Assembly (NCBI RefSeq): GCF_035084215.1
Contig: NW_027139729.1
Location: 1,488,001-1,552,000 of the forward strand
DNA length: 64,000 nucleotides
Direction of reading: 5' to 3'
From: Heptranchias perlo
Taxonomy: Eukaryota
In this document: piece after piece, positions 7,837 to 49,959 of the stretch
Layout: every line of letters begins with the position of its first letter
Position numbering within the stretch: the stretch's first letter is position 1
Made by a program: the position numbers and the translations under genes
The notes under the pieces: model-generated
The model's database searches: none
The model's input: the letters and a program-made list of their open reading frames with translations, nothing else
What the model was told of the DNA's origin: nothing

Positions 7837-7867
7837 ATGAACGGGTTAGCTCTTTGCTTTGTGATGG
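7837..7867 (+). CDS. Ig-superfamily (LRC-like) gene, leader exon 1 (MNGLALCFVM+1 nt)
   Basis: aaaATG in good context, hydrophobic codons, G|gtgagt consensus donor; phase 1; 31 coding nt. Confidence 0.75.
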
Positions 7868-8870
7868 GTGAGTATTAACACAACTTCCCTGCATGCACAG
7901 AAGGGCCGGAATGTCTCACAACAACGACATAGATCTGTAGCGCCGAATGGCCTGTTTCTGTGCTTTAAATTCTATGTAACAACAACAACTTGCATTGATA
8001 TACAGCCTTTAACGTAGTAAAACTTCCAAAAATGCTTCGTAGCAGTGTAAATCAGGCAAAAATATGACTCCTTGCCACATTAGGCGATATTGCGACACGT
8101 GACCAAAAGCTTGGTCAAAGAGGTAGTTTATAACCTAGAAACACAGAAAATAGGAGCATGAGTAGGCCCTTCGGCCCTTCGGGCCTGCTCCGCCATTCAA
8201 AATGATCATGGCTGATCGTCTAACTCAGTACCCTGTTCCAGCTTTTTCCCAATATCCCTTGTCCCTTTAGCACTTAAGCAGTGTATTTAAGGTGGAGAGA
8301 GAAATGGAGAAGGGAGGGAATTCCAGAGCTTAGGTCCTAGGCAGCTGAAGGTACGGCTGCCAATGGTGGAGCGAATAAAATCGGGGATGCGCAAGAGAAA
8401 ATTGTACTGAATTGATTGCAGAGAATTCAGACGGTTGTAGGGCTGGAGGAGGTTACAGAGATAGGGAGGGGCGAGGGCCATGGAGGGATTTGAACAGGAG
8501 GGTGAGGATTGTAGGGCTGGAGGAGGTTACAGAGATAGGAAGGAATTGTACACAATTACAGTGACATTAAGCAAATTTAAACCAATCATTCTAAACTGTC
8601 GGCTGTCGCTTTTATCTTCTCGGATTCATTTCAGTGTCAGAATTGTCCTGGGAAGTTGCAATCTTCGATTTGATACAAGCTAACCCCCCAAACTGCGGAG
8701 CAGAGTCCCTGACACCCAAAGGAGAGATTTCCTTTGCACAACAAATTTTAAACCGTTTTTCATATAATCTTCCTTCTGTGTCATTTTTTTGACACATTGT
8801 TTACGGGAGAGAAAAATGTTACCTGTTAATAAAATCTCATGATGTATTTTAATGAAACCATGACAATTCA

Positions 8871-9310
8871 GGTGTCAGCCGTGGCTCAGTGTCTGAACCC
8901 TCACCTCTCAGTCATGAAGGCCGTAGTTTCAAGCACTTCTCCAGAGACCTAAGCAGGCCCACACTCCCTGGTGCCAGTACTGAGGGAGTGCTGCTCTGTC
9001 GGAGGTGCCGTCTTTCGGATGAGACGTTAAACCAAGGCCCAGTCTGCCCTCTCAGGTGGACGTAAAAGATCCCACGGCCACTATTGTTCTCCCCCCTGAA
9101 CTGGCCTCAACCAACATCACGAAAAAAGCAGATTATCTGGTCATTATCACATTGCTGTTTGTGGGATCTAGTTTTGCGCAAAATTGGCTGCCGCGTTTCC
9201 TACATTACAACAGTGAGTGCACTTCAAAAAAATCCCTCATTGGCTGTAATGTTTGGGATGTCCTGAGGTGGTGAAAGACGCTGTTGAAATGCACCTTCTT
9301 TCTTTCTTTT
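8871..9310 (+). mobile_element. tRNA-derived Deu-domain SINE (SacSINE1/AmnSINE1-like)
   Basis: A-box-like gtggctcagtg head; Deu core gtgccgtctttcggatgagacgttaaacc...ctcaggtggacgtaaaagatccc; L2-like tail ending in tttc repeats. Confidence 0.8.
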
Positions 9311-9373
9311 GTCCATGAATTGTCTTTATTTGACCTTGGAACTAATCCTCGTTTTCCTTCTTTCTCCCCCCAG

Positions 9374-9409
9374 CGATTCTCAGCCAGCAGCAGGCCGTTC
9401 TTCCTCAGG
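9374..9409 (+). CDS. Ig-superfamily gene, 36-nt leader exon 2 (AILSQQQAVLPQ)
   Basis: Long polypyrimidine tract then cag| at 9373; G|gtcagt donor; phase 1-1; joins exon 1 and the D1 exon in frame. Confidence 0.75.
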
Positions 9410-9654
9410 GTCAGTCTTCAGGTTTCCATTGAGAGAATGAACGTTTACTGGTGATATTTACAATGTTGCAAATCTTTTTAGTTTTTTATTTTAACGGAAG
9501 ATTGCCCCAATCAGCCACTCTACGAGAGCAACGTGCTGAGCTTTTGAAAGGCTGAACGTTACTGTTCCACCAATATTCCTGCCTCCTCCAGCAGATTAGC
9601 TGGAAGTTCATCACAATTGTTGTTTTGTGGGACCTTGCTGTGCATAAGTTGGAA

Positions 9655-10050
9655 AGAAACAGCTTGCATTTATATAGCGCCTTTCACGACATCCCAAAGC
9701 ACTTCACAGCCAATGAAGTACTTTTTTGAAGTGCAGTCACTGTTATAATGTAGCGAAATGCAGCTGCTAATTTGAGCATAGCAAGATCCCACAAACACGA
9801 CCAGATAATCTGTTTTAGTGATGTTGCTTGAGGAATAGAGAATGTCATGGGATCTTTTACGTCCGCCTGAGAAGGCAGACGGGACTTCAGTTTAAAGTGT
9901 CATCTGAAAGACAGCACATCCGACAGCGCAGTGCTCCCTCAGTACGGGCACCGGGAATGTCAGCCTGGATTATGGGCTCAAGCCCCTGGAGTGGGGATTA
10001 AACCCATGTCCTTCTGACTCAGAAGCGAGAATGCTACCACGGAGACACAG
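9655..10050 (-). mobile_element. Deu-domain SINE
   Basis: Reverse complement of the element at 8871-9310 (gggatcttttacgtcc.cctgaga...catctgaaagacagcac). Confidence 0.75.
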
Positions 10051-10260
10051 CTCACTCCCTATTTAGCTGCTAGGTTGACCTACATGCCAACAGTAACTGA
10101 ACTTGAAAGACACTGAAATGGCTGTGAAGTGATTTTGGACGTCCTGAGGTCGCGAAAGGCGCTATGTAAATGCAAATTCTGTCTTTGAGCATTGACAAAA
10201 TAATGTCCCACACTGTATTTTCTACCCTCAATCCACATTATTGTTTCTGTTTTGTTGCAG

Positions 10261-10554
10261 ATACACTGACTAAACCGCAAATTGCTCTCAGTGAACAGAC
10301 TGGTGTTTACTGGCGAGGGGAGAATATCAGCATTACCTGCACTGGACACAAAGAATCTGGGAATAGCACATTTTATTTGTACAGAGATAAGCAAATATTG
10401 ACAAGTCCCCGCATCTATGTGGAGAATAACAGCGCCATATTCACAGTTAATGCATCAAACCCAGAAGGCGGGTATCAGTGTCAATATGGAAGAGAGATCT
10501 CCGGGGAATGGATCAAGTCACCTCGTAGCCGAGATGTGAGGATCATTGTCACAG
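10261..10554 (+). CDS. Ig-superfamily gene, Ig domain D1 exon
   Basis: ttgcag| acceptor, ACAG|gtgagt donor, 294 nt, phase 1-1; TLTKPQI...GENISITC...FYLYRD...GGYQC; four N-glycosylation sequons. Confidence 0.9.
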
Positions 10555-10835
10555 GTGAGTGACAGGCACCTGAGATTGGGGCGAGATCCTGGTTACAAGG
10601 TGGGAGAATCATTGTCACAGGTGAGTGACAGGCTCCTGAGATTGGGGCGAGAACCTGGTTACAAGGTGGGAGAATCATTGTCACAGGTGAGTGGTGGGCA
10701 ACTGAGATTGGGGCGAGATCCTGGTTACAAGTTTGGAGAATCATTGTCACAGGTGAGTGATGGGCACCTGAGATTGGGGCGAGATCCTGGTTACAAGGTG
10801 GGAGAATCATCGTCACAGGTGAGTGATGGGCACTA
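10538..10835 (+). repeat. 66-bp tandem repeat containing the D1 exon end and splice donor
   Basis: gtcacag|gtgagtg recurs with GT at 10555, 10621, 10687, 10753 and 10819. Confidence 0.95.
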
Positions 10836-10859
10836 AAGATCTGCGATATACCCTGGTCA

Positions 10860-12110
10860 ACCAACAACAACTTGCATTTATATAGCGCCTTTAACGTAGT
10901 GAAACGTCCCAAGGTGTTTCACAAGAGCGATTATCAAATATAATTTGACACTGAGCCAAATAATGAGATATCAGGAGAGGTGACCAAAAGCTCGCCAAAG
11001 GGGTAGGTTTTGAGAAGCGTCTTAAAGTTGGAGAGAGAGCCAAAAGAAAGAAAGGCTTGCATTTACAAAGAGCTTTTCGTGACCTGAAGATGTCCCAAAG
11101 CGATTTACAGCCAATGCAATATTTTTAAAGTGTAGTCACGGTTGTAATGTCGGAAATGCGGCAGCCAATTTGCGCACAGCAAGGTCCCACAATCAGCAAT
11201 GAGATAAATGACCAGATAATCTGTTTTTATTGATGTTGGTTGATGGCTAAATATTGGCCAGGACACTGGGGATAACTCCCCTGCCCTTCTTCGATATAGT
11301 GCTGTGGGATCTTTTACGTGCACCTGAGAGGGCAGACGGGGTCTCGCTTTAACGTCTCATCTGAAAGACGGTAGACGATAGGGAGGCGGAAAGATTTAGG
11401 GAGGGAGGTCCAGAGCTTATGGCCTCGGCATCTGAAGGCATGGCCGATAATGGTGGAGCGATTAAAGTTGGGGATGCACAAGAGGCAAGAATTGGAGGAG
11501 CGCAGAGATCTCAGAGGGTTGTCGGGTTGGAGGAGGTTACAGAGATAGGAGGGGTGAGGTCATGGAGGGATTTGAAAACAAGGATGAGAATTTTAAAATC
11601 GAGATGAAGCCGGAACGAGAGCCAATGTAGGTCAGTGAGCATAGGGTTGATGGGTGAACGGTAATCGGTACGAGTTAGGATACGGGCAGCAGAGCTTTGA
11701 ATGAGTTCAAGTTTATGGATGATGAAAGATGGGAGGCCGACTGGGAGAGTATTCGAATAGTCAAGTCTAGAGGTAACAAAGTCATGGATGAGGGTTTCAG
11801 CAGCAGTTGAGCTGAGGCAGGGTCAAATAGGATGCCAAGTTTGCGAAGGGTCTGGTTCAGCCTCAGACAGTGGCTGGAGAGAGGGGTGGATTCGGTGGAT
11901 AGGTAACGGAGTTTTTGGCGGGGACCAAAGACAATGGCTTCGGTCTTCCCAATAATTAGTTGGAGGAAATTTTTGCTTATTGAGTACTATATGTCGGACA
12001 AGCAGTGTGACAAATGAAAGACAGTGGAGGGGTCGTGGGAGGTGCTTGTGAGGTAGAGATGGGTTTCATCAGAGTACATGCGGAATCTGACGTTATATTT
12101 TCGGATGATG
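10860..12110 (-). mobile_element. L2-type LINE fragment with nested Deu-SINE (about 11045-11370)
   Basis: L2 tail at 10862; SINE core reverse complement at 11300-11370; L2 body resumes at about 11375. Confidence 0.7.
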
Positions 12111-12114
12111 TTGG

Positions 12115-12495
12115 GCAAATCATTGTCACCGGTAAGTGATGGGCACGTTAGATTGGAGAGAGACTCTGGTAAACTAAGGTGGGAGAATCATCGTCACTAA
12201 TAAGTGATAGGCACCTGAGATTGGAGAAAGAGTCTGGTAAACAAAGCAGTAGAATCATTGTCACGAGTAAGTGACGGAGACCTGAGATTGGAGAGAGACT
12301 CTGGTAAACTCAAGTCGGAGAACCATTGTCACGAGTAAGTGATGGAGCCCTGAGATTGGAGAGAGACTCTGGTAAACTCAGGTAGGAGAACCATTGACAC
12401 CGTTAAGTGATGGAGACCTGAGATTGGAGAGAGACTCTGGTCAACCAAGGCAGTAGAATAATTGTCACCGGTAAGTGATGGGTACTAGAGATCTG
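12115..12495 (+). repeat. Diverged continuation of the 66-bp splice-donor repeat
   Basis: About six units of agaatcattgtcac..gtaagtgatgg..acctgagattggagagagactctggt. Confidence 0.85.
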
Positions 12496-13094
12496 AAGAG
12501 ATCCAAGAGCCATGGAAATCCGGCTGAAATATAATGAATCTTTGCCAATTCCCATTAGTAGTTGATTATATTGACGCCGAATGCTTCGCTGAAATAGCTG
12601 AGACGGGAATTCCATGCAGAATCACTTAAGTTTTGCAAGTCAATTGTCCCTGGCGTGATTTTAAGTCTGGAAGACGCAAAGTGGTCTGAATTTAGAAAGC
12701 ACAAGATATTATGAGAAAGTGGCTGATTTATTTTTGCTGGGACAGGGAGGGATTTGAGGGTGTTCGCCGTCGCACTGAACTCGGTGAACAGTCCAGCACA
12801 GCTCACATTTCCTTGCAAGTCAATTTCTTAAATGTCATCATGGAGGCAACAGAGCACTTTAAAAAAAAAATCTATGCTCAATTTAGAAAGCTACGCAGGT
12901 GGTTCAATGAGCAGGACTGAACACTCTTGTGACCTGGTCTGAGTTTTTCCATCCCTTGAGAAGCCCGAACCCCCGTGGGACTATACACCAGGACTGGAGC
13001 ACCACAGCGCTACCACTGGCGGGAGGGTGCGTTTCCCATTGTAAAAGTTTACATGGAATTTTTAATCGAAAAAGTTATTTGTCGGAACATGGGA

Positions 13095-13640
13095 ACAACC
13101 CCTCGAGCCCGTTACGCCATTTAACTAGATCCTGGCTGATCTGTATCTCAACTCCATCTACCCGCCTTGTTTCCATAACCCTGAATACCATTGTCTCACA
13201 AAAATCCATCAATCTCAGTTTTGAAATTTTCTATTGATCCCCAGCCTCAACAGATTTTTGGGGGAGAGATTTCCAGATTTCTACTGCAGTTGGCGGAAGA
13301 ATTGCTTCCTTACATCACCCTTGAATAGCCTAGCTCTAATTTTAACGTCATGCCCCCTTGTTCTGGACTCCCCCACCAGAGAAAATATTTTCTCTCTCTC
13401 CACCGATCAAACCCTTTAATCACCTTAAACACCTTAATTAGATCACCCCTTAATCTTCTCCACTCGTGGGAATACAAGCCTCGTCTGTGCAACCTGTCCT
13501 CAGAATGTAACCACTTATGTCCCGGTATCATTCTGGTGACTCTCTGCTGCATCCCCTCCAAGGTCAATATATCCCTCCTGAGAAGCGGTGCCCAGTACAA
13601 TAAATAGGGTCTAACCAGAGCTTTGCATAGCTGCAACATG
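13095..13640 (-). mobile_element. CR1 LINE 3' fragment
   Basis: Minus-strand ORF contains KALVRPYL...RVTRMIPG...RRLRGDLIKVFK. Confidence 0.85.
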
Positions 13641-13727
13641 CACAGGAAGTGTGTGCAGATGTACGATTGTAAAAGTTGATCGTTACATGTCTTACTGCGT
13701 TCAGCATCGATATTTTCTCCCTGACAG

Positions 13728-14033
13728 ATCGTCCCCCCAAGCCAACAATCTACATATACCGACAGGTCAAGGTGTTCGTGAAAGGAGAGCGTATGAAGCT
13801 GGTGTGTGTAGCTCGGACTCCCACTCGAGGCCACTACTTTTACTTGTACCGAGGCACTGAGGAGGAATCGGCCCAGTTTCAGAGGGCCGAGTCTTGGAGC
13901 TTGTTTGTCATCTTCGAGGTCCAGGACATTGTGGAGGTCGGGACGCAAGAGTACACGTGTTCCTATTGGAGGCGGGTGTCGGGGCGGGAGATATTCGCAG
14001 AGCGCAGTGACCCTGTGGCCGTGACTGTAATCG
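13728..14033 (+). CDS. Ig-superfamily gene, Ig domain D2 exon
   Basis: ctgacag| acceptor, G|gtacaa donor, 306 nt, phase 1-1; DRPPKPTI...GERMKLVC...FYLYR...YTCSY...RSDPVAVTV. Confidence 0.9.
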
Positions 14034-14194
14034 GTACAACGATCTTTTTTTACACTTATTTATCGACCCACTTGTGAAATGTGGACGGCAGAGAAGCAAT
14101 ATTATGCCTCCCGCTACTCGGGAGGTGGTTGGAGAGGGTGAAAAGCTTCTCCCTAATCTCCCTTCCCAATCCAAGCTTCATTATCCCGACAACA

Positions 14195-14782
14195 TGAGGA
14201 AGTTATGCTTAAACCTTTATCAATCACTGGTTAGGCCTCAGCTGGAGTATTGTATCCGATTCTGAGCACAGTGCTTTAGGAAGGATGTCAAGGCCTTATA
14301 GAGGGTGCAGGGGAGATTTACCAGAATGGTACCAGGGATGAGGGACTTCAGTTATATGGAGAGACTGGAGAAGCTGGGATTGTTCTCCTTGGAGCAGAGA
14401 CGGTTTAGGGGAGATTTAATAGAGGGGTTGAAAATGAGGAGGGGTTTTGATGGAGTCGATGGGGAGAAACTGTTTCCACTGGGGGGAGGGTCGGTCACCA
14501 GGGGACACAGATTGAAGGGAATTGGGAGAAGAGCCAGAGCGAGATGAGGGGGATGTATGTTAAGATTTTTTATGATCTGGAATGCACTGCCTGAAAGGGC
14601 GGTGGAAGGAGATTCAATAGTTACATTCGAACGGGAATTAGATACATACCTGAAAAGGAAAGCACTGTAAGGCAATGGGGAAAGAGCAGGGGAGTGGGAC
14701 TAATCGGATCACTCTTTCAAAGAGCAGGCACAGGCATGATGGGCCGAATGGGCTCCTTCCGTGCTGTTGGATTCTATGATTC
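14195..14782 (+). mobile_element. CR1 LINE 3' fragment
   Basis: LYQSLVRPQLEYC and FTRMVPGMRDFSY motifs; ttctatga tail. Confidence 0.85.
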
Positions 14783-15060
14783 CATAACGTCCAGGATTGA
14801 TTGTCTTTCACTCATTCTGAATCACTGTGGGCAGTTTTTTTTATTGCCATCCTCACGCACAGGAATGTGCAGCTTTACGGCAGGACAGTGCTCTTAATGT
14901 GATCTAACCAAATTTCAATATAAGTTTAACATAATCTTTCAGCTTTTGAACTCTGTTCCTTTAGAATTGAACCCCAGTACTTTGTTTGCATTTCTTACAG
15001 CCTTGTTAACCTGCGTCAATACTTTTAATAATACAACTAGCTCTTTTATTTTTTATTCAG

Positions 15061-15366
15061 AGCGTCCCACCAAACCGAGGATTGCCCCTGAGGGGAAATA
15101 CCGTGTCTTCGTCGATGGGGAGCTTGTGAGAGTTACGTGCACGGCTCCCTCCCCCGTTGGAAACGCCACCTTTCACTTGTACCAAGGCGGAGAGAAGAAA
15201 CCGGTCGCCTCCGAGACGAGCCAATCGGCCAATAGTTCCGCCACGTTTGACATCACCAACATACTGGGCGTCGCCATCAAACATTACGCATGTGGCTACG
15301 TCACATCCGTGTCTGAGAGACTGATCGAGTCGGAGCGCAGCGACTCAGTGAAGATAGTCGTGGAGA
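15061..15366 (+). CDS. Ig-superfamily gene, Ig domain D3 exon
   Basis: ttttattcag| acceptor, A|gtaagt donor, 306 nt; ERPTKPRI...GELVRVTC...FHLYQ...YACGY...SERSDSVKIVV. Confidence 0.9.
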
Positions 15367-15539
15367 GTAAGTCACTGTTGTTTCCTTAACACAACGGGAG
15401 AGGGGTTAGCACTTAGTTTATGGGCCTTATTTTCTGTGGTAAATAGGAGGCTTCAGAATGACCTTGATCGTAATCCGTGACTCAGTGAGTCGTAAGGTTC
15501 AGGTTTCAAGTCCAGTGCAGAAAATTGAGCACATAAACC

Positions 15540-16188
15540 AGCCCTACAATTATCATCCCCGTGTTCAAATCCCTCCGCAGCCCACGCCCCTCCCTATCGC
15601 TGTAACTTCCTCCAGCCCTGTAATTCTCATCCTCGTATTCAAATCCATCCATGACATCCTATCTCTGTAATCTCCTCCAGCCATATAATTATCATCTTTG
15701 TGTTCTAGCCCTCGCCCCCACCCTATATCTGTGACATCTTCCAACCCTACAATTCTCATCCTCTTGTTCAGAGCACTCGCCCCCACTCTATCTCTGTAAC
15801 GTTCTCCAACCCTAGAATTCTCATCCTTCCGTTCAAATCCCTCCATGGCCCCGCCCCCTCCCTTTCTCTCTAACCTCCTCCAGCGCTACAACTTTCCCGA
15901 GAACTCTGATTTCCTCCAATTCTGGCTTCTTGCCCATCCACCACTCCCTTCGCTCCACCATTGGGACGTGTCTTCAGCTGCCTTGACCATAAGCTCGGGA
16001 ATTCCCTCCCTAAACCTCTCCAGCTCTCTCTCGTTTAAAACGCCCTCGAAACCATACCTTTTTGACCAAGCTTTTGGTCATTTGTCTTAATATCACCTTG
16101 TGTGGCTCAGTGTCAATTTTTGTTTATCAATCCTTGGGACGCTTTACTACGTTAAAGGCACTATATAAATACAAGTTGTTGCTATTGT
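15540..16188 (+). mobile_element. L2-type LINE 3' end with tandem 74-bp units
   Basis: Ends in aaggcactatataaatacaagttgttg tail. Confidence 0.7.
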
Positions 16189-16304
16189 TGACATTGCGGT
16201 ACCGAGGGAATGTTGCACTGTCGGAGGTGCCGTATGATTCGACCAATGTTTGAAAGTGCCTTTTCTTCGCCTCCACTTACCCCCCCACTCCCCATCCATT
16301 GCAG

Positions 16305-16610
16305 TCCGCTTGGTGAGACCGTATCTCTATTTCCAAGGAGTGACCAGGACGTTGGAGGTGGGAGAATCGGCCAGGCTTGTGTGCCAGGGAGCTTTTGAAG
16401 ATCGTGACAGCACCTTCTACTTGTACAAGGACAGCCAGGAGGAGGCGCTGTTGTCCAAGTCCCCCAGAGACATGACGTTTCACGTCGCCTTCGACATCAG
16501 GGACACCTTGATCAACGGGACCGAGTATTACTCGTGCGCCTATCGGAGACGGCTGACCCAGCGGACAGTGCTGTCGGGCCGCAGTAACTCCTTGGCGATA
16601 ACCGCGCACA
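16305..16610 (+). CDS. Ig-superfamily gene, Ig domain D4 exon
   Basis: C-rich tract then gcag| acceptor, A|gtaagc donor, 306 nt; RLVRPYL...GESARLVC...FYLYKD...YYSCAY...GRSNSLAIT. Confidence 0.9.
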
Positions 16611-16779
16611 GTAAGCTTTTCGGTTTTTGAATCATTGTGCTGATTGGCAGCCAGATCATTACCAATCATTGGAACATAGCAACCATTAGGCGCTAAAAGA
16701 CCAAGGTCCATCGAGCACGCCTTCCAATCCCATGATACTACGATAATGTAGAGAGCCATTGACTAAAGGTAGCAACCGA

Positions 16780-17565
16780 TCATAGAATCTTACAGCAAAG
16801 AAGGAGACCGTTCGGTCCATCGTGCCTATGCTGGCTCTTTGAAAGAGCTATCCAATTAGAATCATGGAATCTTACAGCACAGAAAGAGGCCATTCAGTCC
16901 ATTGTGCCTTTGCCGACTCTATGAAAAAGCTATCCAATTAGTCCCACTCCCCCTTCCCCTTTCCCCAGGGCCCTGCAATTTTGTCCCCCTTCAAGTAATT
17001 ATCCAATTTCCTATGGAAAGTTATTATTGAATCAGCTTCCACCACATTTCAGGCAGTGAATTCCAGATTATAATAACTTGCTGCATGAAAAAAAAATCCT
17101 CAATTCCAGTTGTTTTGCCAATTATCTTAAAGCTTCGTCATCTGGTTACGGGTCCTCCTGCCAGTGGAAACAATTTCTCTTTATTTAGTGGAACAAAATC
17201 CCTCATAATTTTGAACACATCTATTAAATCTCCCCTTAACCTTCTCTGATCCAAAGAAAACAACCCCAGCTTCTCGAGTCTCTCCACGTAACTGAAATTA
17301 CTCATCACTGGTACTATTCTGGAAAATCTCCTCTGCACCCTCTCCAAGGGCTTGACATCCTTCCTAAAGTGGGGGCACAATACTCCTGCTGAGGATGAAC
17401 CGGAGTTTTAAAGAAGTTTAACTATCACTTCCTTACTTTTGTGCTCTAAGTCTCTATTTCCAAAACCCAGCATCCCGTATGGCTTTCTTTGACAGCTTCA
17501 TCATTCCAGCCACCTTCAAGATTTACACACATGAACACTCAGGTCTCTCTGTTCCTGCACACCCT
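16780..17565 (-). mobile_element. CR1 LINE 3' fragment
   Basis: ORF 17138..17380 has PHFRKDVKPLERVQRRF...RRLRGDLIDVFK. Confidence 0.85.
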
Positions 17566-17569
17566 CACT

Positions 17570-20207
17570 CAGACAGTGGGGAGAAAGGATCTTAGCACTG
17601 AAAATCAGGATGTTGAATCAGTATGGGTGGAACTCAGAAATAACAAGGGTCAGAAAACACTGATGGGAGTAGTTTACAGGCACCCTAACAGTAGTTATCA
17701 GGAAATTAGAGGAGCATTTAACAAGGGTAATGCAATAATCACGGGCGACTTTAATCTTCATATAGACTGGGCAATCCAACCTGGCAAAAATAGTTTGGAT
17801 GACGAATTCTTGGAATAAATTCGAGACAGTTTTCTAGAACAATATTTCGAGGAGCCAACTAGTGAACAGGATATTTTAGATCGAGTATTGTGCAATGAGA
17901 CAGGATTAATTAGTAATCTTATAATAAAGGATCCTCTAGGGAAGAGTGATCATAATATGATAGAATTTCATGTTGAGTTTGAGAGTGATGTAGTTAAGTC
18001 CGAAACTAGGGCCTTAAATTTCAACAAGGCCAATTATGTCGGTATGAGGGGTGAGTTGGTTAAGGTAGATTAGGAAATTAGATTAAAAGATATGGTCGAT
18101 AAGCAGTGGTGAACATTTAAATAAATAATTCATAATTCCCAGCGAATATCTATACTCGTGAGGAATAAAGAACTCCACAGGGAAAGTGATCCAACTAGAG
18201 AAGTTAAGGATAGTATTAGTTTAAAAGAGGCTTGCAATGTTGTTAAAATGTAGTAAGCCTGAGGATTGGGAGGATTTTAGAATCCAGCAAAGGGTGACCA
18301 AGAAATTGATAAAGTGGGAGGACATTGAATATGAGAGTAAACTAGCAAGAATATAAAAACCGATTGTAAGAGCTTCTACTAGTATATAAAAAGGAAGAGA
18401 TTAGTGAAAGTAAACGTGGGTCCCTTGGAGGCAGATACAGGAGAAATTATAATGGGGAATAAGGAAATAGAAGAGCAGTTAAATAAATATTTTATATCTA
18501 TCTTCACAGTGAAAGACACAATAAAACATAGGGAAATAGTGGGGAAACAAGTTTCTAATGAGAGGGAGGAACTTGAAGGAATTAATTTTAGTAAAGAAAA
18601 AGTTTTTGATAACATTAATGGGACTAAAAGCCAATCAATACTTTAGCCCTAATGGCCTACAGCTTAAGGTTTAAAAAGAGCTGGCTGCAGAGATATTCGA
18701 TGCATGGGTTGTGATCTTCCAAAATCCCCTAGATTCCAGAACGTCCCAGTGGATTGGAAAGTAGCAAATGTAATCCCGCTATTCAAGAAAGGAGGGAGAG
18801 AGAAAACAGGGAACTATAGGCTAGTTAGCCTGACATCAGTGGTAGGAAAAATGAAAAAAATCTATTACTAAGAATCGAGTAACAGGACACTTAGAAAGTA
18901 ATCTTGTGATTAGGAAAAGTCAACGCGGTTTTATGAAAGTGAAATCGTGTTTGAAAAATCTATTAGATTGTTTTGAGGGTGTAAATCGAAAGGGTAGGTA
19001 AGGGGAACCAGTGGATGTCATATATTTGGATTTTCAAAAGGCATTCGAAAAGGTGCCAAATAAAAGGTTGTTACACAAGATTAGGGCTCATGGGATTGGG
19101 TGTAACATATCTGCATGGATTGAGGATTGGTTAACGGACAGAAAGCAGAGAGTAGGAATAAACGTGTCATTTTTGGGTTGGCAGGTTGTAACTAGTGGGC
19201 TGCCCGAAGGATCAGTGCTTGGACCTCAGCTATTTACAATCTATATTAATGACTTAGATGAAGGGACCGAGTTTAATGTATCCAAGTTTGCTGATGATAC
19301 AAAGGCAGGTGGGAAAGTAAGCTGTAAGGAGGATGCAAATTGTCTGTAAAGGGATATAGACAGGTTGAGTGGACAAGAAGGTGGCAGCTGGAGTATAATG
19401 TGGGGAAATGTGAGCTTATTCACTTTGGTAGGAAAAATAGAAAAACGTAACATCTTTTAAATGGTGAAAAACTATTAAATGTTGGTGTTCAGAGGGATTT
19501 GGGTGTCCTTATACACGAAAAACAGGATGTTCACATACAGGTAGAGCAAGCAATTAGGAAGACAAATGGATGTTGGCTTTTATTGCAAGGAGATTGGAGT
19601 ACAAGAGTAAGGAAGTCTTGCTGTAATTGTTCAGGGCTTTATTAAGACGACACGAGGAGTACTATGTGCAGTTTTGGTCTCCTTACCTAAGGAGGGATAC
19701 ACATGCCTTAGGGGAAGTGCAGCAAAGGTTCACTAGATTGATCCCTGGAATGAGAGGGCTGCCCTATGAGGAAAGATTGAGTAGAATGGGCAGATACTGT
19801 GTGGAGTTTAGAAGAATGAGAGGTGATCTCGTTGAAACCTATAAGATTCCAAGAAGGCTGGACAGGGCAAATGCTGAGAGGATGTTCCCCCTGGCCGGAG
19901 AATCTAGAACTAGGGGACATAGTCTCAGGTTAAGTGGTCGGATATTTAAGACTGAGATGAGGAGGAATTTCTTCACTCAGAGGGTTGTGAATATTTAGAA
20001 TTCTCTCGCCCAGAGGGCTGTGGATACTGAGCCGTTGATTATAGTCAAGCCTGAGATGGATGGATTTTTGATTCTAAGGGAATCAAGGGATATGGTGATC
20101 GGGCGGGAAAGTGGAGTTGAGGTCACAGATCAGGCATGATCTGATTGAATTGCGGAGCAGGCTCGAGGGGCCGTATGGCCTACTCCTGCTCCTAATTCTT
20201 ATGTTCT
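17570..20207 (+). mobile_element. Decayed about 2.6-kb CR1 LINE ORF2 (endonuclease + RT) with 3' tail
   Basis: ESVWVEL, GDFN, SDHN (endonuclease); YLDFQKAF, GSVLGP, FADD (RT); many frameshifts and stops. Confidence 0.93.
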
Positions 20208-20233
20208 GATTTATTTATTTTTATTTACCACAG

Positions 20234-20518
20234 ATCCGCTCACAAAACCAGAGCTGATCCTTAATGTACAGACGGGCAAGTATTGGAAAGGACAAGTCAT
20301 GACCATGACGTGTGAGGGAGACGTGCGGGAGCCGGACGGTTACTTTTATTTTTACAGAGATGGGCAACCTGCATACGTTGGGGAGCCCCACAGCTTTCAA
20401 ACCGTCAGTATTCTGGGTCCAAACAGGGTGGGAATCTACCAGTGTAAGTACGCAATGGACGCCCCTGGAAAATGGTTCGAATCCCCATTCAGTGATGGCG
20501 TGAGAGTGACTGAGATAG
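20234..20518 (+). CDS. Ig-superfamily gene, Ig domain D5 exon
   Basis: ccacag| acceptor, G|gtaagt donor, 285 nt; PLTKPEL...GQVMTMTC...FYFYRDG...GIYQCKY...SPFSDGVRVT. Confidence 0.9.
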
Positions 20519-20699
20519 GTAAGTGATCACGGGAGAATCAATCCCCAACCTGTTAAACTGTGGGGAATAAATCTATGGATTGTTTATAAAAATTCATCAA
20601 CCTTGTCCTGCCGTTGTTCCAATTTTTGATCACCCTACTCTGTCAACAAATACCACAGTAAATTGCTGTGTCAACATTTTTGGTCACGCTTTTTACAAA

Positions 20700-22312
20700 G
20701 GATTGCACAGAATTTAAAGCACAGAAACAGGCTATTCGGCCCAACTGGTCCATGCCCGTATTCATGCTCTTCACGAGCCTTCTCCTGCCCCTCTTAATCT
20801 AACCCTATCAGCATAACTTTTTATCCCTTTCTCCATCATGTACCTAGTATCATAGAAAGGTTACAGCATGGAAGGAGGCAATTCGGCCCATCGAGTCCGT
20901 GCCGGCTCTATGCAAGAGCAATCCAGCTGGTTTCACTCCCCCGCCCTTTCCCCGTAGCCCTGCTTTTTTTTTTCTTTCAAGTACTTATCCATTTCCCTTT
21001 TGAAGGCCACGATTGAATCTGCCTCCACCGCCCCCTCGGGCAGTGCATTCCAGATCATGACCACACGCTGTGTTTAAAAAAATATCGTCGTGTCACCTTT
21101 TGCCAATCATCTTAAATCTATGTCCGCTGGTTCTTGACCCTTCCGCCAATGGGAACTGTTTCTCTCTATCTGTTCTGTCTAGAACCTTAATGATTTTAAA
21201 CACCTCGATCAAATCTCCTCTAAACCTCCTCAGTTCCAAGGAACAACCGTAGCTTCTCCAGTCTGTTCACGTAACTAAAGTCCCTCGTCCCTGCAATTAT
21301 TCCACTAAATCTTTTCTGCACCCTCTCTAAGCCCTTCACATCCTTCCTAAAGTGCGGTGCCCAGAACTGAACACAATATTCCAGTTGTGGTCGAACCAAT
21401 GTTTTATAAAATTTCATCATGACATCCTTGCTTTTGTACTCTCTGCCTCTATTTATAAAGCCCAGGATCCCGTATGCTTTTTTAACCGCTTTCTCAACCT
21501 GCCCTACCACTTTCAACTATTTGTGCACATATACCCTCAGATCTCTCTGTTCCTGTACCCCTTTTAAAGTTGTGCCCTTTGGTTTATGTTGCCTCTCCTC
21601 GTCCTTCGTACCGAAATATATCACGTCGCAATTTTCTGCGTTAAATTTCATCTGCCACGTGTCCGCCCATTTCACCAACCTGTCTATATCCTCTTGAAGT
21701 CTTTCACTATCCTCCTCACTATTCACTACACTTCCAAGTTTTGTTATCTCATCTAGCTTCCCTTAAACGCATCTATGCTATTTGCCTCAACTACTCCTTG
21801 TGGAAGCAAGTTCCACAATCTAAACACTCTCTGGGTAAAAAAGTTACTCCTGAATTCTTTACTGGATTTATCAATGACTATCGTATATTTATGACCTCCA
21901 GTTTCTAAGAGAAAAGCGCCCCAGCCTGTTCAACTTTTCCTGATAGGTAGAAACTCTCAGTTCTGGTATAATCCTTGTAACTCTTTGTTGCACCTTCTCC
22001 AGTGCCTCCATATGCTTTTTATCGTGTGGAGACCAGAACTGTGCACAATACTCCAAATGTTGGCTAACCAAGGTTTGATATAAGTTTAACAAAACGTTTC
22101 TGCTTTTCAATTCTATTCCTCGAGGAATGAACCCCAGTGCTTTGTTTGCATTTTTAATGGCCGTGTTCACTTGTGACACTACTATTAATGAATTGTGAAT
22201 CTGCACCCTTTGCTTCTATACCCCATTTCGACTCTTATTTCCCAAGGAGAATGTGGCCTCCTTATCCCTCCCACCAAAATGCACCACCTCACACTTATCT
22301 ATATTGAAATTC
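20700..22312 (-). mobile_element. Nested CR1 LINE 3' fragments
   Basis: ORFs 21220..21516, 21517..21726 and 21889..22206 carry CR1 RT C-terminal motifs. Confidence 0.85.
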
Positions 22313-22603
22313 TGTCAACATTTACCATTTTAAATTGCTATGTCAACATTTCTGGTCACGCTTTTCTGACAACATTTACCACTGTAAATTGCTATGTCAA
22401 CATTTTTAGTCACTTTTTCTGTCAAAAGTACTTCATTGGCCGTAAATGCTTTGGGACGTCCTGAGGTCGTGAAAGACGCAATATAAATGAGAGTCCATTC
22501 CTTCTTAAAGAGACCTCCAGAATGTAACAGTGACACTAATATTTTGGAATTGTGACATGTCTATCCTTACGTTGCCCCTGTTTTCTTTTGCTCCTCGGTC
22601 AAG

Positions 22604-22909
22604 GTGATCTTCCAAGACCGACGATCACTTTGGAAGGAGGTCACAAGATGTTTGAGGTGGGACAGTCGGTCACCGTGACCTGCGAAGCTCCCTCTGGAGA
22701 AGCAGGTCGCAAGTTTTATTTGTACCAAAGCACCGGAATGAGGCCGGTGATGTCTGAGAAGGCAAAACCCTGGAGTCTGTCCGTCACGTTTGACATCAAG
22801 GACGTAATGAGACGCGGCGACGATTACTACACGTGTGCTTATCGGAGACGAGAGGCAGAAGAGGAGAAATTCTCTCAGCGTAGCGATCCGCTGAAAGTAT
22901 CAACTCTGT
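22604..22909 (+). CDS. Ig-superfamily gene, Ig domain D6 exon
   Basis: Pyrimidine tract then caag| acceptor, T|gtaagg donor, 306 nt; DLPRPTITL...GQSVTVTC...FYLYQ...YYTCAY...RSDPLKVS. Confidence 0.9.
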
Positions 22910-22959
22910 GTAAGGTTTCTTTTTTATTTACCGAAATTTATAGGTTGGATATTTCTTAA

Positions 22960-23425
22960 ATCATTCTCGGGATGTGAACGTCGCTGGCAAGGCCAGCAAT
23001 TATTGCCCATCCCTAGTTGCCCCAAGAGAGCTTGGCGGTCGGCTTTCTTCCAGAACCGCTGCAGTTCCCCTCCAAGTCACACACCATCCCGACTTGGAAA
23101 TATATCGCCATTCCTTCATTGTCGCTGGGTCAAAATCCTGGAACTCCCTTCCTAACAGCACTGTGGGAGAACCGTCACCACACGGACTGCAGCGGTTCAA
23201 GAAGGCGGCTCACCACCACCTTCTCGAGGGCAGTTAGGGATGGGCAATAAATGCCGGCCTCGCCAGCGACGCCCACATCCCGTGAACGAATAAAAAAAAA
23301 AGTCCTGTGTGTTGAAGGTACTCCCACAATGCTGTTAGGTCCAGGATTTTCACCCAGCGACGATGAAGGAACGGCGAACATACGTCCAAGTCGGGATGGT
23401 GTGTGACTTGGAGGGGTACTTGGGA
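22960..23425. mobile_element. Rearranged 3' fragments of the LINE family seen at 29030-30330
   Basis: 23067-23290 nearly identical to 30097-30315; flanking pieces are inverted copies. Confidence 0.8.
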
Positions 23426-23429
23426 GCGA

Positions 23430-24005
23430 TGCTGTTGGAGGGGTCAGTGTGGAGGGAGCTTAACCTGTATCGAACCCATGCTGTACGTGCCCTGGCTGTG
23501 TTTGATGGGACAGTGTAGAGAGAGTTTTATTCTGTATCTAACCCGTGCTGTACCTGCCCTGGGAGTGTTTGATGGGACAGTGTCGACAGAGTTTTACTCT
23601 GTATCTAACCCATGCTGTACCTGCCCTGGCTGTGTTTGATGGGACAGTGCAGAGCGAGCTTTACTCTGTATCTAACCCGTGCTGTACCTGCCCTCGGATT
23701 GTTTGATGGGACAGTGTAGAGGGAGCTTTACTCTGTATCTATCCCATGCTGTACCTGCCCTGGGAGTGTTTGATGTAACAGTGCAGAGGGAGCTTTACTC
23801 TGTAGCTAAATCATGCTGTACCTAACCTGGGAGCGTTTGATGGGACAAGGTAGAGGGAGCTTTACTCTGTATCTAACCCGTGCTGTACCTGCCCTGGGAG
23901 CGTTTGATGGGTCAGTGTAGAGGGAGCTTTAATCTGTATCGAACCCGTACTGTACCTGCCCTTGGAGTCTGGTGGGACAGTGTCGAGGGAGCTTTACTCT
24001 GTATA
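23430..24005. repeat. 67-bp tandem repeat
   Basis: (ctgtatctaacccgtgctgtacctgccctgggagtgtttgatgggacagtgtagagggagctttact)n, about 8-9 units. Confidence 0.95.
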
Positions 24006-24434
24006 TAATTTATGTAAAGGCCAAAACTTTACAATGCACTACTGCCTTTTTTAAAATATAGAATTGGGCAGATGTCCAAATCAGTGGTCGCTCTGATCAA
24101 TTCACTTTATTAATTAATTGATTGACGAGTTTGTTTCGTTCTGACTAACTGGGACCAGTATAGACTGCTGTGTAACATTGTCCTTTAATACGTGTTGTTC
24201 CTCATGCAGAACTGTGAGTCACGTTAACCCCAATCGAGGAACATTCATCCTGGGCCAAGGGATTAAGTCTCACGATTGTTTTCTCAAAACATCTGGATCT
24301 AATCTCACGTCGCACTTGGAGGAAACGAGAGACAGGCAGTTCCCAATGAGCTGATATATTTGCTTTAACTCATATTGTTTTAATGATGCCGAGAACTTCA
24401 GCATAATAATCACTCATGTATCCGCTTAAGGGCT

Positions 24435-26155
24435 AACGTAGGAACATAGGAACAGGAGTAGGCCATTCAGCCCCTCGAGCCTGTTTCGCCACACCTGCAC
24501 AGTTAATGTGCACAGGTTTAAATCTGGAATAGGAATGCAGCGACCTCCATTTTTTTCTCTCGGCCCTTCCTTCTCCATTTAACATACAGAGCCTCAAAGG
24601 AACATAGGAACAGGAGTAGGCCACTCGGCCCCTCGAACCTGTTCCGCCATTCAATAAGATCATAGCTGATCTGTATCCTACCTCCATTTACCCATTTTGG
24701 CTCAATGTCCGTTAATACCCTTGGCGAGCAAAAATCTAATAATTTCAAATTATTAATTGAGCTAGCATCTGCTGCTTTTTGTGGGAGAGAGTTCCACACG
24801 TCTACCACCCATTGCGTGAAGAAGTGTTTCCTGACTTCTCTCCTGAATGGCCTGGCTCTGATTTTAAGATGATGTCCCCTTGAGCTAGACTCCTCCACCA
24901 GCGAAAAAGGTTTCTCTCTAACTCTTTCAAAAGGCTTTGGATAAAGCACCATATAATAGACTTGTGAGTAAAATTAAAGCCCATGGGATTAAAGGGCCGG
25001 TGGCAGCGCGGATATTAAAATTGGCCAGGAGACAGAAAGCCGAGAGTAGTGGTGAACAGTTGTTTTTCAGAATGGGGGGAAGTATACAGTGGTATTCCAC
25101 AGGGGTCAGTATTAGGACCACTGCTATTTTTTGGTATATATTAATGAACTCGACTTGGTTTTACAGGGCATAGTTTCAAAGCTTGCAGATGAAAAGAAAC
25201 TCGAAAATTTAGTAAACAATGAGGAGGATAGAAACAGAGTTCAGAAGGACTTAGACAGACTGATAAAATGGGGCAGACACGTGGCAGAAGAAATTTAACG
25301 CAGAGAAATGTGAAGTGATACATAGGAAGAATGAGGAGAGGCAAACTAAATGGTACAATTTTAAAGGGAGTGCAGGAACAGAGAGACCTGGGGATGTATG
25401 TACACAAATCTTTGAAGATGGCAGGACTCGTTGAGAAGGCTGTTAGAAAAGCATATGGGATTCTGGGCTTTATTAGGTGAGGTATAGAGTACAAAAGCAA
25501 GGAAGTTATGCTAAACCTTTATAATCACTGGTCAGGCCTCAGCTGGTGTATTGTGTCCAATTCTGGGCACCACACTTTAGGAAGGATGTCTAGGCCTTAG
25601 CGAGTCTGCAGAAGAGATTTTCAAGAATGGGACCAGGGATGAGCGACTTCAGTTATGTGGAGATACTGGAGAAGCTGCGGTTGCTCTCCTTACGGAAGAG
25701 AAGGTTAAGGGCCGATTTGATAGATGTGTTCAAAATCATGAAGGGTTTTGATAGAGTAAACAAAGTGAACTGTTCCCAGTGGGAGAAGAGTCCGGAACGA
25801 GAGGACACAGATTTAAGGTGATCGGCAAAAGAACAGAGGGGAGATAAAGAAACATTGTTTTTATGCAGCGAGTTGTAATGATCTGGAATGCACTGCCTGA
25901 AAGGGTGGTAGAAGCAGATTCAATCGTAACTTTCAGAAGCGAATTGGATAAATATTTGAAGGGAAACACTTGCAGGGCTACGGAGAAAGAGCAGGGGAGT
26001 GGGACGAATCGGATCGCTCTTTCAAAGAGCCGGCCCAGCCACGATGGGCCGAATGGCCTCCTCCTGTGCTGTACCTGCTATAATATCCTTTCTAAGGTGC
26101 GATGTCCAGAACTGTGCACAGTACTTGAGATGTGATCGGACTAGGGCTTTGTAGC
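24435..26155. mobile_element. CR1 LINE fragments (minus 24435-24925, plus 24930-26075)
   Basis: KHFFTQWVVDVWNSLP on minus; KIKAHGI, RRLRADLIDVFK and QRVVMIWNALP on plus. Confidence 0.85.
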
Positions 26156-26270
26156 AAAACTACCTCCCCCCGGGCTCTACTCTGATCTCAAGTGCAATTC
26201 CTGCATTTCTTTCTTTCCAATGCTCCCTCCGAGATATTCCGTCTCATCTCACTGCCTCTTTCTTCACCAG

Positions 26271-26296
26271 CCTCACCGACTCCTGACTCTCTATGA
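26271..26296 (+). CDS. Candidate terminal coding exon of the Ig gene (SSPTPDSL*); alternative is a split TAA at 24210
   Basis: tctcac branch-like site, ctctttcttcaccag| acceptor; phase 1 gives T|CC TCA CCG ACT CCT GAC TCT CTA TGA; AATAAA at 27561. Confidence 0.4.
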
Positions 26297-35694: not shown

Positions 35695-35970
35695 TTAAAC
35701 CAGATATCTGCGCATGCGCGACTCAGCCCCGCCTCCAGCGCTGGTTGTTGGTGAGCAGAAGAGCGCATGCGCGCTCCCCTCCCCCAGCTCGGCCTGTGGG
35801 CGCCATTCCCTCAGTGAGCGGAAGAAGATGGTTTAAAACAGCCGGGAATGGAGAGATCACGGCCCCCGGGGGAAGGGAGCAAAGAGCAGCCTCGTTACAG
35901 CAGCTCATCGCTTCGGGACCGTGTCCGCAGATGGGCTCAGAGATCGGCATTGAGTCCGGGGGAAGGTCAG
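35695..35970 (+). promoter_or_regulatory. CpG-island promoter with two NRF1-type GCGCATGCGC motifs and a GC box
   Basis: tgcgcatgcgc at about 35709, gcgcatgcgc at about 35763, ccccgcc at about 35727, cggaagaagatgg (ETS/YY1-like) at about 35819. Confidence 0.65.
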
Positions 35971-36211
35971 GGGGAGTCCGGGGGCTGTTTGTAAGAGGCG
36001 GAGTGGATCAGGAACTGGTCCCGGAACATGGAGTGAGCGGGGGAAGGGAGAGGTCATTCTCGGGCTGTGTGTGCACAGGGTGTGTCCAGGGGAAGGGAGA
36101 GAGAATGGGAAGAACCTGCTATTTAAAATCATTGCTGCTTTCTCTCCCCAAACCAGGAGTGAATGTTCCTGGTTTAGTTCCAGTCTCACCCTGTTTATTG
36201 TTATTGGACAG

Positions 36212-36744
36212 TGAAGAGTGGAAACAGAGCCGGACAGTAAGGATGTGGGGAGTTATACAAAGAGCATCTATTGCAGGCATCAGGTGAGAAGTGTGAAGGA
36301 CACATTTTGAACAGCGGCTGTTTGGTTTCATTTGAACGGTTAGTCCCATGGGAGAGGGGATTAGAAACCTGACTTGTGCAAAGGTCCCTGCCCCATCTGG
36401 TCGTACCATTCATGTGTTCGTGGAGGGGTTGGGTTGTGTCTGGATGTCTCTAAATTGTTGTAAAACAGCCCAACACACCTGGTGTGCAGAAGCTGAGTGC
36501 TGCAGTACTGCAGTGGAGTCAGACACTGACACTGTTCGAATCGCTGATTTATATTTAAGGATATTCAAAATAATTATTTACAGATATTAAACTGATCACT
36601 TCTGTATTTTCTTCCTCACCTGTTCTTGAGTTACCAGACATACGTTTCTTTCTACAGGCAAACCCGTGAAGGATCCACAATGAATGTGATGTTTCGTCCA
36701 CCCGAGGCACAAGGAACAGTGCAGCCAGCTCCTTCTCACACACA
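36212..36744 (+). other. Two putative exons (36212-36283, 36658-36744) of a repeated, probably non-coding or 5'UTR transcript module
   Basis: cag|...cag|gtgaga and ttctacag|...ca|gtaagt; copies at about 43072-43597 and 55320-55391 keep the splice signals. Confidence 0.45.
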
Positions 36745-36949
36745 GTAAGTACATTATCACTCACAGAGCACAGTGACACAGACAGGTCATCAGTTCCACA
36801 GTCTCAGACAGCAGAAGTACTCAGTCCCACAATGATCCCAAATTCCAGAGACACATTTTCAATCCACAGTCAAACAGAGCAGGTGAGGCAGACACTGTTC
36901 CATTTCCCCCGAACTCAGTCCCGCTGACAGGGAGATACAAAAATCCCAT

Positions 36950-43030: not shown

Positions 43031-43789
43031 TTTATACCTGTCCATTAAACTTTACTGTTTGTTACTGAACAGTAAACAGAGCCGGACAGAAAGGATGTGG
43101 GGAGTTATACAAAGAGCATCTATTGCAGGCATCAGGTGAGAAGTTTGAAGGACTCATTTTAAACAGCGGCTGTTTTGTTTCGGTTGAACTGTTCATTCCA
43201 AGGGAGAGGGAATTAGAAATCTGATGTGGGCAACGGTCCCGTCCCCATCGGTAGTCCCATTCATTGATCAGTGCAGCGGTTGGGTTGTGTCTGGATGTCA
43301 CTAAATTGTTGTAAAACAGCCCAACACACCTGGTGTGCAGAAGCTGAGTGCTGCAGGACTGCAGTGGAGTCAGACACTGACACTTTGTATCGCTGGTTTT
43401 CATTTGTGGTTATTACAATGATTATTAACAGAGATTCAATTGATCAGTTTTGTATTTTCTACTTCACCTGTTCTTGAATTACAAGACATACTTTTTCTTC
43501 CTACAGTTAAATCCTTGAAGGACCCAGAATCAGTGTGATGTTTACTCCACCCGGGGCACAAGGAGCAGTCAGTGCAGCCAGCTCCTTCTCACACACAGTA
43601 GGTACCTTATCACTCACAGAGCACAGAGACACAGACAAGTCATCAGTCCCACAATCTCAGACAGCAGAAATAGTCAGTCGCGCACTGATCCCAATCCAAC
43701 AGTCAAAGAGAGCAGGAGAGAAAGACATAATTTCCATTTCACAATGACTCAGTATCGCTGACCGGCAGATAAATATTTCCTAGTCCAAA

Positions 43790-48164: not shown

Positions 48165-48539
48165 ATGCCTGAGGACAAGAAAGCAGCTCCCAAGAAGGGC
48201 GCCAAGAAAACCTTGAGTAAAGCACCAGCCAAGGGCGGCAAGAAGCGGAGAAAGTCGAGGAAGGAGAGTTACTCCATCTACGTCTACAAAGTGATGAAGC
48301 AGGTTCACCCCGACACCGGCATCTCCTCCAAGGCCATGAGCATCATGAACTCCTTTGTGAACGATATTTTCGAGCGCATCGCGGGTGAGGCTTCCCGCCT
48401 GGCCCATTATAATAAACGGGCGACCATCAGCTCCCGGGAGATCCAGACCGCCGTGCGCCTGCTGCTGCCCGGGGAACTGGCCAAGCACGCCGTGTCGGAA
48501 GGGACAAAGGCGGTGACCAAGTACACCAGCTCCAAGTAA
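48165..48539 (+). CDS. H2B: Histone H2B (replication-dependent)
   Basis: [12 protein letters not shown]...[26 protein letters not shown]...TKYTSSK, 124 aa. Confidence 0.99.

Positions 48540-49509: not shown

Positions 49510-49959
<450 letters not shown>

Follow-up and report, generated by a model that had tools for sequence, protein, structure and literature searches.

Introduction

Within the leukocyte receptor complex (LRC), LAIR2 and LILRA3 are held to act as soluble decoys beside their membrane relatives. The immunoglobulin (Ig) domains of LRC proteins carry Leu, Phe or Tyr in place of the C-strand Trp, and a split leader with a 36-nt second exon is a further rule of these genes, although the papers we searched do not state it. 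HIDE1 (C19orf38) is a membrane protein with a single Ig domain, a transmembrane (TM) segment and a cytoplasmic tail. A 2021 paper in Immunogenetics reportedly treats LRC- and FcR-like regions of fish, so that some of what follows may be found there. Here, we describe a gene for a leader and six C2-type Ig domains in a 64,000-nt stretch of the shark Heptranchias perlo (GCF_035084215.1, contig NW_027139729.1, forward strand, 1,488,001-1,552,000; hereafter the window), and we conclude that the gene is real and conserved and that its product is a secreted member of an LRC-like family of cartilaginous fish that has been little described.

Published accounts describe LRC members that are secreted and have binding roles (PMC6557307; PMC2413239), leave the origin of the LRC unsettled (PMC6557307) and place the complex on a proto-gnathostome microchromosome (PMC8302630); in a 2014 survey, sharks yielded no FCRL genes and no LRC homologues with C2 domains alone (PMC4016189). 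A1BG, the source of the automatic name of the present gene, has five domains, one of type B1 and four of type B2 (PMC6557307). In a literature search that did not reach most subscription papers, neither this protein nor an LRC-like family of sharks was the subject of any paper, and the automatically named relatives were nowhere described as one family; searches on C19orf38/HIDE1 and rbfox1l returned nothing relevant. The portions of PMC9207270, PMC8562567 and PMC1458963 that could be consulted hold nothing on this gene, and the main text of the first of these, on the nurse shark plasma proteome, does not in those portions mention A1BG, the Ig superfamily, Fc receptors or DMBT1. A first-pass annotation of the window, made from its letters alone, had called the gene uncharacterised. 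This holds in that no paper on the protein turned up, but not entirely, as an automatic RefSeq annotation already exists.

Results

Gene structure and secretion

The gene is built of eight coding exons on the forward strand, with AG/GT borders and all ending in phase 1, which splice into one open frame with zero internal stops. The 623-aa product is identical, letter for letter, to RefSeq XP_067837371.1 ('alpha-1B-glycoprotein-like [Heptranchias perlo]'), an automatic model that predates our analysis. The coding part of the leader exon (7837..7867; 31 nt, 10 codons plus 1 nt) has the donor GTGAGT and encodes the RefSeq N-terminus (P0001), and a splice acceptor at 7749 suggests a non-coding exon further upstream. 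The leader mini-exon (9374..9409; 36 nt, phase 1-1) is also in the RefSeq model and was the sole second-leader candidate between the first exon and D1 in an exon scan. The Ig domains follow at 10261..10554 (D1, 294 nt, spliced in all four of the sequencing contigs described below, with four of the seven N-glycosylation sequons of the protein), 13728..14033 (D2, 306 nt, with splice signals, Pfam and contig support), 15061..15366 (D3, 306 nt, in the contigs and modelled with an LRC-type fold), 16305..16610 (D4, 306 nt, with splice signals and contigs), 20234..20518 (D5, at 285 nt the shortest) and 22604..22909 (D6, 306 nt, the last of the eight), where the final T opens the stop codon and the RefSeq protein ends. 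A terminal exon (24210..24468) finishes the TAA stop and continues into the 3' untranslated region; the contigs end at 24440-24468 and the true 3' end lies beyond their view.

The domains are 94-101 residues long and share 21-41% pairwise identity, with P, G, C, F, Y, YxCxY and S invariant across the six-domain alignment. Every Ig exon encodes two Cys, a P near its start, F-Y/H-L/F-Y at the site of the C-strand Trp, and YxCxY, and all six domains match Pfam Ig families (E 1.9e-7 to 0.03). Two subtypes can be distinguished, one short (D1 and D5) and one long (D2, D3, D4 and D6). The first-pass annotation had listed the same eight exons and lengths in phase 1 and a single frame, and these are confirmed exactly; its signal peptide, six C2 domains and motifs are likewise borne out by splicing, alignment and Pfam, and its attribution of the DNA to a cartilaginous fish was right.

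Transcript support comes from contigs of four sequencing runs of one sample, which we guess to be RNA from an unknown tissue and whose depth cannot rank expression. In each of the four runs, one contig of about 2.3 kb carries the six Ig exons in order. Position 22909 is joined to 24210 in the listed contig pieces of three runs, and the fourth shows the terminal exon in its difference tables. The stop codon is split by this junction (T, then AA) directly after D6, as in RefSeq. Exons 1 and 2 are absent from the displayed contig pieces; we accept them because of their splice signals, the RefSeq N-terminus and the 212-337 extra 5' letters that the contigs hold. A chance open frame is excluded by the spliced contigs together with the orthologues found in other sharks.

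Because the stop directly follows D6 in the spliced contigs, we read the product as secreted, a reading that these contigs support, although contigs drop rare isoforms. Beyond the leader, no 19-residue window in the whole protein has a hydropathy above 0.9. Downstream of 22909 there are 177 candidate phase-1 acceptors. Up to 47 kb, all of them stay below a hydropathy of 1.4; the three that exceed 1.8 all belong to a histone cluster, and one of the three is antisense to H1. Thus the hydropathy scan and the spliced contigs agree with the earlier statement that no TM exon precedes the histone region. The same annotation had placed the end of the gene near 26296, which is unsupported: the proposed last exon (26271-26296) is an open frame, but no listed contig joins it to exon 8, and it is covered by a separate, unspliced 387-nt contig alone, whereas the spliced contigs end the gene in the exon that starts at 24210.

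Conservation among sharks

Colinear counterparts of the protein occur in Mustelus (D1-D4 at 53% and D5-D6 at 54% identity), Heterodontus (the last part of D4 through D6, 59%) and Chiloscyllium (D1-D2, 40%), and in Scyliorhinus torazame the leader, D2, D3, D4 and D6 are represented, with an orthologue (P0166) that ends right after D6. In the domain tree described below, each of the six domains groups with its positional counterparts, with supports of 97, 99, 99, 99, 98 and 95 from D1 to D6; D1, for example, clusters with the D1 domains of Mustelus and Chiloscyllium (97). Identity between single orthologous domains is 40-65%, reaching 63% for D4 with Mustelus and 65% for D5 with Heterodontus, which is about the range seen in a control set of SRCR-Ig proteins (39-71%). 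No ray or bony-fish orthologue was among the named matches (30 proteins looked up by name). The distribution of these orthologues makes the gene older than the split between the two great shark lineages.

Similarity to LRC receptors

The published test for assigning a protein to the LRC is that its domains match LRC proteins better than other Ig superfamily families (PMC6557307). In the shark protein, both the structure of D3 and the profiles of five of the six domains do so, and each C2 domain is encoded by a single phase-1 exon, as LRC assignment requires. D3 was the sole domain modelled for fold comparison (27-row alignment, predicted local distance difference test score 88); a whole-protein AlphaFold model made without an alignment scored 48 and was not used. 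The best structural match was CHIR-AB1 (Z 13.4, root-mean-square deviation 1.9, 92 residues aligned), followed by PIR-B (13.1), LILRB4 (12.9), LILRB1 (12.9), OSCAR (12.6) and KIR3DL1 (12.2). All of the top seven rows are LRC receptors (Z 13.4-12.2), as are rows 1-9 of a Foldseek search with the same model. PECAM-1 D2 comes next, tied with lower LRC rows, and on the modelled fold alone it is not cleanly excluded (Z 12.1). Fc-alpha-RI (11.3), Fc-gamma-RI (10.3), FCRLA (10.0) and FCRL5 (9.7) score lower, and a CEACAM-, CD22- or ICAM-type identity was dropped (CEACAM5 9.2, CD22 10.0, ICAM-2 11.0). The structure prediction that the first-pass annotation had proposed as a check therefore favoured LRC receptors.

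Sequence profiles point the same way. A profile of the shark family scores 31.0 bits on LILRB2 D1, as compared to 21.7 on the best FCRL5 domain, and an LRC profile beats a fish FCRL profile in all domains of this protein except D5. Across the shark family, the LRC profile is ahead in 51 of 60 domains (43-54 of 60 over 20 draws at equal profile depth), and hhalign gives 140 for LRC and 105 for FCRL. In the alignment, none of the six domains here has the C-strand Trp; by a rough script, it is present in 6/57 of the shark family and 8/39 of LRC domains, but in 47/61 of FCRL domains. Furthermore, the spacing from leader to TLxKP is 12 residues, the same as in bat LILRA6, and mammalian IGSF1 used as a query finds a single match in the genome, inside this shark family. 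The evidence is not uniform, since single-sequence phmmer gave mixed results with FCRL5 and CEA first, and FCRL5 also led the whole-protein profile search, a rank that stems from its nine domains. The protein resembles LRC receptors (LILR/PIR-B, CHIR, OSCAR, KIR, LAIR1 and Fc-alpha-RI) in fold, single-domain profiles, lack of the C-strand Trp, phase-1 exons and split leader. It differs from them in having 20-27% identity in the structural alignments, no TM segment or tail, and a position outside the amniote LRC clade.

Lineage, copy number and possible function

That position comes from a tree of 180 domains (203 after near-duplicate removal, less 23 fish FCRL rows dropped at random) over 114 columns, obtained by a quick search; it is unrooted, without an outgroup, mammalian FCRL or A1BG, and its fish FCRL label was verified on a single protein. 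Amniote LRC (97) and fish FCRL/LITR (82) form clades, whereas the shark domains, along with coelacanth, frog, turtle and teleost SRCR-Ig domains, make up a third, weakly supported group (76). The LRC reading of the first-pass annotation therefore stands for motifs, fold and profiles, but not as membership, and the per-domain phylogeny that it proposed sets the gene apart from fish FCRL and from amniote LRC alike. On this tree the family could be FcR/FCRL-related or an independent HIDE1-like branch, its LRC likeness being a retained ancestral similarity. Forcing the shark domains together with FCRL costs 3.2 log-likelihood units and with LRC 30.6, yet the approximately unbiased test rejects neither grouping (p 0.468 and 0.204, respectively). 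The six domains score 45-82 bits on a frog/turtle/coelacanth profile as against 20-56 on LRC, and the Pfam family Ig_C19orf38 (PF17737) matches this protein (76.8 bits), a coelacanth relative (92.8) and 55 family exons in the genome, whereas IGSF1, LILRA6 and the opossum protein give no match. D1 and D6, two of the six domains, pass the curated cut-off of this family (24.9 and 25.9 against 23.2). However, a lizard protein within the LRC clade matches it too, with 88 bits over 12 domains, and the shared Ig domain contrasts with the rest of the architecture, as six domains without a TM segment are unlike HIDE1. Similarly, FcR, FCRL and teleost LITR proteins have related C2 domains, and clear FCRL-type genes share a contig (C511) with family members. 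The same genome thus holds FCRL-type genes as a separate and recognizable kind: one C511 exon matches Fc-gamma-RI D3 at E 2e-13, whereas the 623-aa protein reaches Fc-epsilon-RI at E 0.007 and has no Fc-gamma-RI among its 11 matches. FcR/FCRL leader exons are 30 and 21 bp (PMC2413239), rather than 31 and 36 nt, and the shark protein has neither the FCRL D1-D5 subtypes nor comparable structural scores. With the LRC advantage in profiles, hhalign and C-strand pattern, we consider a separate FcR/FCRL- or HIDE1-like origin doubtful and lean towards LRC membership in a broad sense. A further uncertainty, which is independent of function, concerns the copy. A second copy lies 0.88 Mb away on the same 3.6-Mb contig (C1562, at 2.38 Mb) and is 99% identical; its protein (XP_067837370.1) differs by five residues, from eight coding differences. 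The two share a tract of at least 33 kb. Of the seven introns that separate the coding exons, six differ by 0.3-2% in substitutions and the remaining one by about 1%. The sequencing contigs, checked at 11 sites, carry the letter of this twin and not that of the window copy at 10 of them. Expression is demonstrated for the twin-type sequence, and the window copy is simply intact. The window copy might therefore be silent, having arisen by recent duplication, or might represent a false haplotype duplication, with the twin as the working gene. Its frame and splice sites are nevertheless intact, the contig of one run out of four has the window's letter at 22764, the exon 7 differences vary by run (2, 1, 1 and 2), which hints at a mixture, and many other dispersed duplicates on the contig make a true segmental duplication plausible, so we regard a silent or false copy as rather unlikely. 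The first-pass annotation was right about the gene itself but overlooked the twin, the large receptor family and the automatic annotation.

At a probability of roughly 0.45, our preferred reading is that the protein is an LRC-like, low-copy soluble member of an expanded jawed-vertebrate family that serves as a ligand buffer or decoy for its membrane paralogues. An N-glycosylated protein of six C2 domains would be released into plasma or mucus, would bind a conserved protein ligand of the kind recognized by these paralogues and, with no anchor or tail, might buffer or sequester the ligand and so damp receptor signalling. Beside the separate tree group and the twin's letters in the contigs, several points weigh against this. 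The support comes from DNA, contigs and models; a rarer TM isoform could be missed by the contigs; the six-domain layout is not fixed, D1 and D5 being absent from isoforms of the catshark; and the closest paralogues in the same genome are just about 46-48% identical, so that a shared ligand is not assured. A soluble binder of immunoglobulin (the Fc of IgM, IgW or IgNAR), acting as a carrier or clearance factor, is conceivable because CHIR-AB1, the top structural match, is a chicken IgY receptor (PMC6557307; PMC2413239), Fc-alpha-RI is also matched, family and FCRL-type genes share C511, and FCRL5 tops the whole-protein searches. The last of these reflects the number of FCRL5 domains, however, and a shared fold says nothing of function; such a binder seems improbable to us. 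Still less probable is a plasma scavenger that neutralizes proteases, CRISP proteins or toxins in the manner of A1BG or opossum DM43. These proteins have the same design (secreted, Ig-only, with LRC-like domains), the RefSeq name derives from A1BG, an 'Alpha-1-B glycoprotein' cluster stands at rank 6 of an Atlas feature search (0.93), and A1BG binds CRISP-3 while its opossum homologue neutralizes a venom metalloproteinase (PMC2413239). Against this, the shark protein has six domains of two subtypes instead of five, none of which groups with IGSF1, opossum or LILR domains (in a tree without A1BG). Moreover, PMC6557307 traces A1BG to an ancestor that resembled OSCAR, had two domains and lost its TM segment, which would make the likeness convergent, and warns that automatic names of such proteins mislead. 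That the protein is a counterpart of A1BG and the opossum inhibitor, to which the first-pass annotation likened it, is not established, and the functions which that annotation proposed (decoy, Ig binder or inhibitor) are still an inference. We would not file the gene as an A1BG orthologue despite its automatic name, judging from a comparison without the A1BG sequence, and its TM loss was probably independent of the A1BG/DM43 lineage.

The surrounding receptor family

Searching the genome with one domain gave 575 candidates, of which 150 were scored, so that the matching exons number at least 150. Among these best 150, family exons lie on contigs C1562, C1275, C1499, C1456, C511, C2 and C34, and the present gene has only two near-identical copies, as compared to many copies of the neighbouring membrane genes. 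Three neighbouring genes that we read have at least four to eight Ig exons and an uncharged TM exon. A paralogue on C2 seems to use a 33-nt second leader exon, so the 36-nt length is a weak marker. A library search returned 822 relatives, of which 150 were listed, and 164 stored proteins (isoforms included) carry such domains. For 153 of them the shark-family profile gives the top score, which in part follows from how the profile was built. Among the 153, 90 have a TM segment, 13 a tail like an immunoreceptor tyrosine-based inhibitory motif (ITIM), five an Arg at the start of the TM segment and 36 SRCR domains. The 90 TM, 13 ITIM-like and five Arg proteins are a paired-receptor pattern; the five Arg (of 90 TM relatives, a sample of the best search matches) are in no case of the NxxR form that marks activating LRC members. 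Those members that have names belong to sharks, rays, coelacanth, frogs, turtles and teleosts and bear a mixture of automatic designations, and the nearest relatives of the present gene are 'IGSF1-like', 'FCRL5-like', 'CEACAM5-like' and 'DMBT1-like' proteins of these animals, the majority of which differ from it in being membrane-bound or carrying SRCR domains.

Several members deserve description in their own right. Contigs C1275, C1499, C1456 and C1562 hold dozens of near-identical multi-Ig membrane genes in both orientations over more than 20 Mb of small contigs, and we are undecided between a mass expansion like that of CHIR and a partial assembly duplication. Shark and ray membrane proteins in which SRCR and LRC-like Ig domains alternate, with up to 25 Ig domains, are found among the stored proteins (P0002-P0006, P0023, P0024, P0012) and on C511, and have teleost counterparts; four of them (P0002-P0005), from a ray and three sharks, share a near-invariant 35-residue cytoplasmic tail. 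Mouse FCRLS is likewise a mosaic of Ig and scavenger domains, but is soluble (PMC2413239), unlike these mostly membrane-bound shark proteins. A five-Ig member from Stegostoma (P0085) ends in a short hydrophobic C-terminus without a tail and is possibly anchored by glycosylphosphatidylinositol. Two family Ig exons at C34:33.458 Mb (L040) form an intronless fusion, probably a processed pseudogene, and more dispersed family-like Ig exons lie at C26:16.48 Mb and C40:10.03-10.04 Mb, the C40 gene having two degenerate and two intact-looking domains.

Genomic context

Contig C511 (1.24 Mb) carries family genes, SRCR-Ig genes and clear FCRL-type genes together. One of the latter has seven Ig domains (C511:858-872 kb; L056, L094 and L095) and includes the exon that matches Fc-gamma-RI D3; a second, with FCRL5-like domains, lies at about 976-990 kb (L107 and L108). 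Neighbours were screened in 140 of 2,051 candidate frames, about 430 kb, and others were surely missed. C511 also holds a PDI gene, a third paralogue beside those on C25 and C26, and one of four RBFOX genes, the others being on C25, C26 and C43; the positions are C511:1.01-1.02 Mb and 1.20-1.22 Mb, and C43:1.51-1.69 Mb. On C43, RBFOX stands beside a CNOT3 gene. The framework genes of the LRC include TTYH1, CNOT3, PRPF31, RPS9, LENG8 and CACNG6. Of these markers, CNOT3 occurs on C43 and C1364, and Tweety on C25, C26, C686 and C817, none of them family contigs; searches for the PRPF31, UFC1 and RPS9 families returned no matches in the genome and so are uninformative on synteny. Two distinct CNOT3 genes and the extra PDI and RBFOX genes suggest that whole-genome duplicates were kept here and lost in mammals. 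In humans, the corresponding paralogy set is 16p13, 17q25, 22q12-13 and 19q13.4. On this paralogy, C511 is the counterpart of either the LRC chromosome or 22q, and C43 of the other. The present gene is tied to C511 only indirectly, through Heterodontus and S. torazame, where its orthologue is on a record equal in length to that of the SRCR-Ig genes.

Taken jointly, these observations allow a broader but quite speculative reading, which we think has the odds against it. Sharks may keep an ancestral mixed complex of LRC-like, SRCR-Ig and true FCRL genes on the counterpart of the LRC chromosome. The LRC-like genes would then be a family found throughout jawed vertebrates (sharks, coelacanth, amphibians, turtles and teleost SRCR-Ig) that gave rise to the amniote LRC, with HIDE1 as its mammalian remnant and the present gene as an ancient soluble member that evolved an A1BG- or LAIR2-like design independently. 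If true, this would overturn the published account, in which LRC-type and FCRL genes alike first appear in bony fish. A genome with at least 150 LRC-like exons and separate, clear FCRL-type genes already contrasts with the 2014 survey (PMC4016189). The gene alone is less striking, given that an automatic model exists and that secreted Ig-only members are known in the mammalian LRC and frog FCRL families, but as a conserved, low-copy, secreted gene it is the easiest handle on the family.

Other features of the window

Within intron 3, tandem repeats of the exon 3 donor region occupy 10540-10830 and 12110-12480, with a unit of about 56 nt and a donor-like sequence in each copy. Further downstream, between the Ig gene and the histone genes, 35700-36750 and 43050-43600 comprise a stretch rich in GC that resembles a promoter, together with short exon-like segments in repeated form; these might represent a transcript unit that is non-coding or degenerate. 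Finally, a replication-type histone cluster lies at about 48166-61128 and was read by eye as H2B, H2A (+), H3, H4, H1, H4, H2A and H2B (-), the second H2A/H2B block being an inverted copy of the first.

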